DNA of 64,000 nucleotides. Origin: Escherichia coli O157:H7. Its GTDB lineage: Bacteria; Pseudomonadota; Gammaproteobacteria; Enterobacterales; Enterobacteriaceae. Each line of letters opens with the position of its first letter. Position 1 is the first letter of the stretch. The translations under genes and the position numbers were made by a program. Below, in pieces: positions 3,947 to 4,452 of the stretch. The notes beneath the pieces are model-generated. The model was not told the DNA's origin. It made no database searches and saw nothing but the letters and a program-made list of their open reading frames with translations. Location of the stretch: the NCBI RefSeq assembly GCF_013167455.1, contig NZ_CP038328.1; one strand, 5' to 3'.

Positions 3947-4102
3947 TTACTCCTCAGGTTCGTAAGCTGTGAAGACAGCGACCTCCGTCTGGCCGGTTCG
4001 GATTCGTACCTCGCAGAGGTCTTTCCTCGTTACCAGTGCCGTCACTATGACGGTGATACAGATGACGATCAGGGCGATTAACATCGCCTTTTGCTGCTTC
4101 AT
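3947..4102 (-). CDS. hokD: Hok-family type I toxin (HokD/RelF-like; longer overlapping Mok-type frame extends to 4159)
   Basis: MKQQKAMLIALIVICITVIVTALVTRKDLCEVRIRTGQTEVAVFTAYEPEE is near-identical to HokD as recalled (51 aa). Confidence 0.85.
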   Translation of the reverse strand: MKQQKAMLIALIVICITVIVTALVTRKDLCEVRIRTGQTEVAVFTAYEPEE

Positions 4103-4347
4103 AGCCTGCTTCTCCTTGCCTTTCGGCGCGTAAGAGGCTAACCTACATGTGTCTAGCATGAAATTGGCCTCAGATTAATGTTAGGCGTCTTGCAGGACGC
4201 GTAATGTTAACTGGGGCTTTTCTCTGTCTACCTTACGGTGGCATGCCCGAGGCAGACAGCCTCAAGCACCCGCAGCAATTCTACTTAACTCTCGCTTTAC
4301 CGCAAACCGTTTTTACCCGATATGGGAATTCCCATATCGTAATGAAT

Positions 4348-4452
4348 TCAGTTCCCTAGTCGATCCATCAAAAACACAACCAGGCAGTAAACGCCCACAA
4401 CAGCAATAACAGCCAGCGCACCTTCCATTGCCAGTGAAATATCATCCGACAT
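4348..4452 (-). CDS. 34-aa hydrophobic peptide with strong Shine-Dalgarno (AGGAGGG)
   Basis: MSDDISLAMEGALAVIAVVGVYCLVVFLMDRLGN; AGGAGGG 5 nt upstream of the ATG; below the ORF-track cutoff, found by eye. Confidence 0.35.
   Translation of the reverse strand: MSDDISLAMEGALAVIAVVGVYCLVVFLMDRLGN

Follow-up and report, generated by a model that had tools for sequence, protein, structure and literature searches.

An apparently complete hok/mok/sok cassette and a conserved 34-aa membrane-peptide gene as neighbours in an Sp6-type prophage of Escherichia coli O157:H7

Does a hokD-type toxin gene that lies in a prophage without relBE still belong to a complete type I toxin–antitoxin cassette, and what is the small hydrophobic peptide encoded just upstream of it? 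The locus that raises this question is found in a 64,000-nucleotide stretch of E. coli O157:H7 (assembly GCF_013167455.1, contig NZ_CP038328.1), hereafter the window, to which all coordinates refer unless stated otherwise. An original prediction, made from the letters of this DNA, had described a Hok gene near-identical to hokD with no relE or relB upstream, and in their place a 34-aa hydrophobic ORF that might be either another small membrane toxin or else an unrelated small protein. Our analysis indicates that the locus probably consists of two separate neighbours in the nin region of prophage Sp6, namely a complete hok/mok/sok cassette (3851–4305) and a gene for a 34-aa inner-membrane peptide.

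The 901 bases around hok and the 34-aa frame match many E. coli O157:H7 chromosomes at 100% identity, and positions 1914–6914 of the window align with 1,548,500–1,553,500 of the Sakai chromosome, in prophage Sp6 (“lambda-like phage”), at 99.96% identity (2 mismatches in 5001). The region's genes are all encoded by the minus strand and run from DUF1627 through several small genes, an Ead/Ea22-like gene, DUF551 (4568–5155), small ORFs, hok, a 92-aa gene, DUF968 (a ydfU homologue) and rusA to Q, which is the order to be expected from the replication genes up to Q, the late-gene antiterminator. The interval 4160–4567 does contain the 34-aa ORF, but it is more crowded than originally described, when this ORF was taken for its sole content: there are also the complete hok leader together with mok and Sok, the promoter of hok, a palindrome of 22 bp (4318–4339) and a small hydrophobic ORF of 27 aa (4488–4571).

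The 34-aa frame occupies 4348–4452 on the minus strand, its ATG preceded by the Shine–Dalgarno sequence AGGAGGG (4456–4462, minus strand) just as first reported, and it encodes an 18-residue hydrophobic stretch, ALAVIAVVGVYCLVVFLM. The description of this ORF as unannotated does not hold, as it is listed in RefSeq as hypothetical protein WP_001278450.1, is ECs_5710 in Sakai Sp6, and appears as XECs145 in Huecker et al. 2017, where it is predicted to be an inner-membrane protein with one helix (S8). The supplement of that study places XECs145 at Sakai 1,550,761–1,550,922, with a sequence that ends in the exact 34-aa peptide; the frame given there is 54 aa long and runs from a non-canonical upstream start, whereas the gene in the window is 34 aa long, and we favour the 34-aa product because its Shine–Dalgarno sequence and ATG are conserved. 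Neither the hok neighbourhood nor the 34b subfamily described below is mentioned by Huecker et al. 2017, and literature searches by peptide string or accession gave no match in main texts, the ORF being found in that one supplement only.

A lack of transcription or translation would, according to the original prediction, have spoken against a real gene, and published RIBOseq data show that the frame is translated. XECs145 reached an RNA RPKM of 79, a ribosome-footprint RPKM of 346, an RCV of 4.35 and a coverage of 0.99 in LB, with corresponding values of 121, 150, 1.14 and 0.84 in BHI and of 73, 1.1, 0.01 and 0.37 under BHI stress (Huecker et al. 2017), in reads that may stem from any Sakai copy, the ORF being present in two or more copies per genome. 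Its Shine–Dalgarno sequence is mostly unpaired in the local RNA fold, and a consensus promoter scan found no promoter for the ORF.

Comparison of about 200 loci, collected from viral contigs in one scan with the hok promoter pattern and a second with a pattern for the small ORF only, places the peptide in a family of E. coli prophage peptides of 29–34 aa, each with a single helix, that divides into two subfamilies. The window's type, 34a, has the form MSDDISLAMEGALAV…LMDRLGN and starts with ATG, while 34b, found in phages Tritos and HannyBb, has the 29-aa sequence MLVLKCALAIAAVMAIYCLAVVLMDRLSD and starts with GTG. All 134 copies keep the frame open to the same stop position and have a start codon (ATG in 58, GTG in 76), and in every one of them, across both subfamilies, GGAGG or GGGAGG stands 5–6 nt upstream of that start codon. 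Of 35 variable sites, 19 are third codon positions, an excess with p = 0.009 for the two subfamilies pooled, and pN/pS is 0.19 within 34a and 0.35 within 34b. Between members that are only about 50% identical, pN/pS is 0.34–0.59, with synonymous sites near saturation and replacements among hydrophobic residues, and such members nevertheless retain the frame, the stop position, the Shine–Dalgarno sequence and the hydrophobic character.

Among 5426 complete E. coli genomes, 673 carry the 34a region at the DNA level; the median copy number per genome is two, and most copies are more than 90% identical. The family is narrow. Neither the 34-aa nor the 27-aa peptide has a significant match in PHROGs, NCBIfam, PADLOC or Pfam, and a profile search of 1.84 billion proteins yielded 22 clusters, all of this same family, with no distant relatives. 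A protein homology search with a 51-aa extended query likewise returned close E. coli relatives only, and tblastn against phage genomes gave four weak matches, which their context showed to be real homologues. An ORF of 34 codons is by itself not beyond chance, since ORFs of at least 20 aa number 99 in 5.5 kb, but the conserved Shine–Dalgarno sequence, start and stop and the third-position excess are. With start, ribosome-binding site and stop conserved, purifying selection evident and RIBOseq in agreement, the 34-aa frame is a genuine, translated and conserved gene for a single-helix membrane peptide, already annotated and reported.

What, then, does this peptide have to do with hok? Most likely it is a non-toxic accessory (“moron”-type) membrane protein that is inherited beside hokD-type cassettes and is not needed for hok regulation, “non-toxic” being drawn here from its translation in bulk culture. 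It would be made as a single-pass inner-membrane peptide from its own strong Shine–Dalgarno sequence, also in uninduced lysogens. We consider it an independent neighbour of hok because 70 of 124 hok loci of the hokD/hokW type lack the ORF, among them the functional hokW–sokW of 933W/Sp5, and because four copies of the ORF occur without hok. In these four loci (L149, L150, L162 and L212), an intact 34b ORF is followed by unrelated DNA, and homology stops right past the stop codon; in hok loci of the PPompW type, homology to the window ends at the stop codon of the 34-aa ORF. Lambdoid mosaicism typically places its breakpoints at gene borders, and because those found here fall exactly at the stop codon, the ORF behaves as a unit of its own, distinct from the hok cassette. 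In a sample enriched for the ORF, the architecture upstream of hok comprises a 34b ORF in 72 loci, a 34a ORF plus palindrome in 60, the 27-aa ORF only in 21, the palindrome only in 11 and none of these in 37.

The reading that competes best with this one, although we think it improbable, makes the 29–34-aa peptide a functional partner of Hok (a membrane modulator, an immunity factor or a co-lysis factor), or has its transcription or translation read into hok and tune expression. Loci first found with the ORF-only pattern carry hok at a fixed distance downstream in 67 of 72 cases and lack it in 5, with 10 more cut by the contig end; the exceptions among all loci include one IS element between the genes, one truncated hok and one regex miss. 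Even the diverged members P0060 and P0063, whose upstream neighbours are different ones (ORF6N or HigBA), still have a HOK_GEF gene about 155 nt downstream. At 34b loci the stop codon precedes the hok −35 by 6–8 nt and, because no terminator lies between them, the ORF transcript must enter hok; the 34-aa ORF and hok are, in addition, both expressed in lysogens. Set against this are the many hokD/hokW-type loci that do without the ORF and the four ORF copies that do without hok, and the linkage can be explained if mosaic phages inherited the two genes as one block from a common ancestor.

A more specific form of this idea, to which we assign a lower probability still, would make the peptide a dedicated third component of the prophage hokD-type subclass, one that would meet Hok in the inner membrane and set its threshold or timing (as immunity in lysogens or co-lysis after induction), or an upstream cistron whose transcription would run through the hok promoter and shape the folding of hok mRNA. 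We keep it under consideration because the two genes stay next to each other even where alleles share only about 50% identity and the flanks are unrelated. Such near-constant adjacency, over diverged alleles and differing surroundings, could reflect a functional tie that is underrated when the ORF is read as an independent neighbour.

Two further elements share the upstream region. The palindrome CGATATGGGAATTCCCATATCG (4318–4339), 22 bp long and perfect, lies between the 34-aa ORF and the hok −35; it is unique in the window, is found once in each hok locus of the 34a or PPompW type, and would form a 9-bp hairpin as RNA. A role as terminator was rejected, there being no U-tract after it on either strand. 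The 27-aa hydrophobic ORF (4488–4571, minus strand), MIWPEAFAITGVAIAIDFLVYVICRWG, begins with an ATG that overlaps the DUF551 stop (ATGA) and has no annotation in the RefSeq records examined. It is represented by 25 alleles of constant length with a pN/pS of 0.26 and is found in 94 phage records, in some of them without hok, as in BP-4795 (between DUF551 and DUF4222, near xis/int), PhiR12_5 and the virulent phage Av-05. Because of its presence without hok in these three phages, we assign it to the upstream gene block and reject it as part of the hok module. One phage carries a stop at codon 3 of this ORF. In rare alleles (P0024 and P0028), the 27-aa and 34-aa frames are fused into a 74-aa protein with two helices. 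The two ORFs were not taken for a frameshifted 74-aa gene, as the fusions are rare, with 2 member sequences each against roughly a thousand split contigs.

We now turn to the toxin gene. The 51-aa hok coding sequence (3947–4102, minus strand; hokD in RefSeq, WP_001303917.1) is free of any IS element, frameshift or stop. Its product matches Pfam PF01848 (HOK_GEF) with E = 2.9e-23 over positions 1–42 of the 42 in the model and PHROG 251 (“MokW-like host killing”; 2.8e-33), and its scores against the NCBIfam Hok models lie under the curated cut-offs. The noted near-identity to HokD is borne out by alignment with K-12 hokD, from which the gene differs by 2 nt and the peptide by one residue (L16I; 50/51 identical). 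A 70-aa mok frame (3947–4159, minus strand) overlaps hok in frame and ends at the same stop, in the mokW/hokW layout of 933W, and is annotated in Sakai as “MokC” (ECs_1520).

The hok promoter, which was read from the sequence and is a putative assignment, is TTGCGG-16 nt-TAGAAT (4278–4305, minus strand) with its start at G4271, and its −10 and start region are invariant among diverged loci. The original prediction had held that the intactness of Sok and of the fold-back elements could not be judged by eye, and had proposed a covariance-model search. Such a search returned a full-length match (1–157) to Rfam RF01794 (sok), a model of the hok mRNA leader as far as the hok AUG, at 4097–4271 on the hok strand, with 114.1 bits against a gathering score of 59. 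The matched leader (minus strand) comprises the 5′ tac hairpin, the Sok target, the mok start and the hok Shine–Dalgarno sequence.

At the other end of the transcript, the hok 3′ UTR contains the fbi (fold-back inhibition) element CCUCAACGCACCC (3885–3897, minus strand), which is invariant in K-12, 933W and Tritos except for one base, and a terminator scan located an intrinsic terminator (3851–3878, minus strand; hairpin at 3861–3878, then a U-run) that K-12 hokD and Tritos also keep. The minimum-energy structure of the predicted 414-nt hok transcript (4271 to 3858) closes the 5′ end, GGGUGCUUGAGG, on the fbi element (z = −6.7 against shuffled controls), which is the long-range 5′–3′ pairing of tac and fbi that locks the full-length mRNA in the classical model; when 45 nt are cut from the 3′ end, the 5′ sequence folds instead into the hairpin seen in the Rfam consensus. 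A match of Rfam isrK to the hok 3′ UTR was disregarded (27.7 bits against a gathering score of 50).

On the plus strand, a Sok promoter read as TTGCCT-17 nt-TAACCT (4116–4144) predicts a start at 4151, the position of the annotated sokW start in 933W. The Sok antisense RNA of about 71 nt (4151–4221, plus strand; coordinates transferred from the sokW misc_RNA of 933W) folds at −32.9 kcal/mol (z = −6.2) into a free 5′ tail, complementary to the region of the mok start, followed by a long terminator hairpin and a U tail. At the level of sequence only, the locus thus carries a cis-antisense Sok with its own promoter, a terminator and an overlap with the mok start. The consensus promoter scan missed both the hok and the Sok promoters because their hexamers are weak (in Sok, the −10).

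Every regulatory part of the hok/mok/sok cassette is therefore present and, as judged from its DNA, the cassette is intact and ordinary. These results bear on whether the hok locus could instead be an inactive relic, as several chromosomal hok genes of K-12 are, a state that the original prediction had tied to an absent hok regulatory structure. A relic would be in keeping with the truncation of K-12 hokD, with the NCBIfam scores under cut-off, and with published reports that some chromosomal hok loci do not mediate post-segregational killing. We nevertheless find this unlikely: the structure is there, each element folds as expected, the coding sequence is undamaged, the sister locus hokW–sokW is functional, and it is because Sok and the fold-back elements are intact that we do not regard the cassette as an inactive relic.

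The cassette may thus operate in the manner of its relatives. The full-length, stable hok mRNA would be kept inert by pairing of its 5′ end with the 3′ fbi element. Slow 3′ trimming would let the 5′ end refold and open mok to translation, to which hok translation would be coupled. The short-lived Sok, made from its own promoter inside the leader, would pair over the mok start and block translation, and a drop in Sok, for example on prophage induction or loss, would allow the 51-aa Hok to enter the inner membrane and kill or lyse the cell. The sequence elements of this scheme are present in the window, while its kinetics and toxicity are modelled on R1 hok/sok and hokW–sokW. We infer that the window's copy of Hok is toxic by analogy with the sister locus hokW–sokW, for which Hok killing and Sok neutralisation have been demonstrated.

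Could the 34-aa peptide be a toxin in its own right? We consider it very unlikely that it acts as a further type I-like toxin of the membrane, paired with an RNA antitoxin of its own that has so far escaped notice. In being a small hydrophobic peptide it has one hallmark of such toxins, and its size, single hydrophobic helix and prophage location recall toxins of the Ldr, TisB, ZorO and Ibs types. Overlapping the ORF start on the other strand, a weak promoter-like site (TTGCCA-16-CATATT, 4428–4455) was the one site that the promoter scan offered for an RNA antitoxin. Promoter-like sites, however, number 2 against a mean of 1.3 in shuffled sequence, which puts this site at shuffle level; it also falls within a stretch of the ORF for which 34b has other sequence, and Rfam, like Pfam, NCBIfam, PHROGs and PADLOC, gave no match. 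More tellingly, a type I toxin is silenced during normal growth, whereas this frame is robustly translated in healthy uninduced cultures (RCV 4.35) from a strong, unsequestered Shine–Dalgarno sequence, and we argue against a second toxin because free translation during healthy growth is the opposite of what such a toxin would show. Of the two possibilities originally offered, the separate small protein, conserved and translated, is thus upheld, and the second membrane toxin loses ground to the free translation, the exposed Shine–Dalgarno sequence and the failure of the promoter scan and Rfam to show a conserved antisense promoter or RNA family.

That the 34-codon frame is a chance ORF upstream of hok, conserved through recent ancestry or as a DNA or RNA element, is scarcely credible: short ORFs are abundant, most copies are more than 90% identical, and the family has no match in other families and is confined to E. 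coli prophages, but 99% of the frame is covered by ribosome footprints, variable sites cluster at third codon positions, members about 50% identical retain frame, stop, Shine–Dalgarno sequence and hydrophobicity, and 134 of 134 copies are intact.

Taken with the preferred reading of two separate neighbours, these results leave the understanding of type I toxin–antitoxin systems unchanged, and the hok/mok/sok cassette is a standard, already annotated element. What is new is modest, namely how the small-protein family is structured and linked to hok, a 27-aa gene that lacks annotation, and an explicit account of the truncation of K-12 hokD. ECs_5710 emerges as a translated membrane protein from a two-branch family that lies nearly always just upstream of a prophage hok. 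Both the 34-aa and the 27-aa ORFs could bear on the timing of prophage-borne Hok during induction.

Ldr, TisB, ZorO, Ibs and ShoB are small type I toxins with a single helix, and the 34-aa peptide resembles them in length and in its single hydrophobic helix. It differs from them in showing no sequence similarity, in having no detected antitoxin RNA and in being freely translated in growing cells.

The comparison with hokD (relF) of the K-12 prophage Qin answers the question of the missing relBE. In K-12, the order is ydfU–rem–hokD–relE–relB, so the original statement that relE and relB lie upstream of hokD in Qin was accurate, as was the observation that they are missing from the window: the ORF list has no relB or relE ORF in 4160–5155, the relE sequence in the alignment belongs to K-12 only, and a relBE–hokD operon, with relB and relE directly upstream of hokD, is thus not what the window contains. 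The surprise that this implied was misplaced. K-12 hokD shares with the window the same 3′ UTR, fbi element and terminator, with DUF968/ydfU and Q downstream, but its homology to the window begins only at the hok Shine–Dalgarno sequence; in place of the promoter, tac, the mok start, the Sok target and the Sok gene, K-12 has the 3′ end of relE. Because the window, 933W and Tritos share the whole leader while K-12 homology starts at the hok Shine–Dalgarno sequence, the arrangement without relBE is, as these alignments indicate, the intact form, and the relBE–hokD of Qin is a truncated derivative. This clears up a misreading of which of the two arrangements is derived, and the regulation of HokD is best studied in a prophage copy such as that in the window because the K-12 copy is truncated.

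The mechanism of R1 hok/sok (parB) is well established. The window resembles it in the fold-back of tac and fbi, in mok-coupled translation and in an antisense Sok, encoded in cis, whose 5′ tail is single-stranded and which has a terminator hairpin, the mechanism in the window being predicted from this likeness. R1 hok/sok is carried on a plasmid, whereas the cassette in the window lies in a prophage, and peptides of the HokW type reportedly share no more than about 44% identity with R1 Hok. Enrichment of hok genes in prophages has been reported.

The closest studied relative is hokW–mokW–sokW of the Stx2 phage 933W and Sakai Sp5. Its cassette is the same from about −15 of the hok promoter to fbi, with aligned pieces about 92% identical, mok in frame with hok and Sok at the same position, and it too resides in a lambdoid prophage of O157:H7. 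The two differ at the Hok C-terminus (…VFTAYEPEE in the window, …VFVDYESEK in HokW) and in their neighbourhoods: hok in the window lies between DUF551 and DUF968/rusA/Q and hokW lies elsewhere, with the 27-aa ORF upstream of it in 933W but the 34-aa ORF and the palindrome absent. The hokW–sokW locus of Sp5 is a proven type I system, in which mitomycin C causes Sok to fall and Hok to rise, and its presence doubles phage release.

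Upstream of the gene encoding the 34-amino acid membrane protein lies another hydrophobic ORF, of 27 amino acids (MIWPEAFAITGVAIAIDFLVYVICRWG; window positions 4488–4571, minus strand), which is without annotation in the RefSeq records examined and probably represents a genuine gene for a small membrane protein. It starts at an ATG shared in part with the stop codon of the DUF551 gene (ATGA), keeps a constant length over 25 alleles with a pN/pS of 0.26, and is present in 94 phage records, among them those of the hok-less phages BP-4795 and Av-05. In the rare alleles P0024 and P0028, which are homologous to window positions 4348–4571, the 27-aa and 34-aa frames are joined via an indel or stop loss into a 74-aa protein with two hydrophobic helices.

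Small ORFs of the 34b subfamily, the type found in phages Tritos and HannyBb, also occur without hok, as observed in the phage or viral-contig locus L149 (5461–5574) and likewise in L150, L162 and L212. The hok-less ORF is flanked by a 264-aa ORF, the N-terminus of which looked SIR2-like by eye, and on the other side by an oppositely oriented 120-aa gene, and lies upstream of a 199-aa ORF. Approximately 200 nt upstream of it are conserved with phage Tritos as well. Public records of related loci contain annotation errors: the Hok gene of phage phiSTEC1589-Stx1c (1573–1728) is labelled 'tail fiber protein', and in phage HannyBb (2408–2697) two 'hypothetical proteins' have wrongly been placed antisense to the small ORF and the hok leader.

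In the interval from the stop codon that ends the 34-aa ORF to the −35 element of hok, a perfect 22-bp palindrome (CGATATGGGAATTCCCATATCG; 4318–4339) occurs once in the window, and one copy per locus is present in hok loci carrying the window's type of 34-aa ORF (34a) and in those of the PPompW type, which have no such ORF. As neither strand carries a U-tract after the palindrome, a role as terminator is not obvious; the element might bind a protein, or form an RNA hairpin separating the upstream transcript from hok.

Rfam matches were also obtained elsewhere in the window. A match to STnc100 (307–473, minus strand) lies past the 3′ terminus of a 273-aa ORF (1245–2066), the counterpart of the Q antiterminator. 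Matches to SraB (49421–49589, minus strand) and the rne 5′ UTR (51439–51775, plus strand) place the right-hand part of the window in chromosomal DNA flanking the prophage.

Within hok itself, the C-terminal tyrosine codon, Tyr47 (GCU UAC GAA; 3960–3968, minus strand), retains the UACG context. A recent preprint reports that TadA A-to-I editing of hokC, hokD and hokE mRNAs recodes the corresponding codon to Cys. The hok 3′ UTR (3857–3938, minus strand) gave a sub-threshold Rfam match (27.7 bits, with the gathering score at 50; E = 7.6e-4) to isrK, an Hfq-binding sRNA of a Salmonella prophage, a resemblance that probably reflects only a common hairpin-plus-terminator shape.
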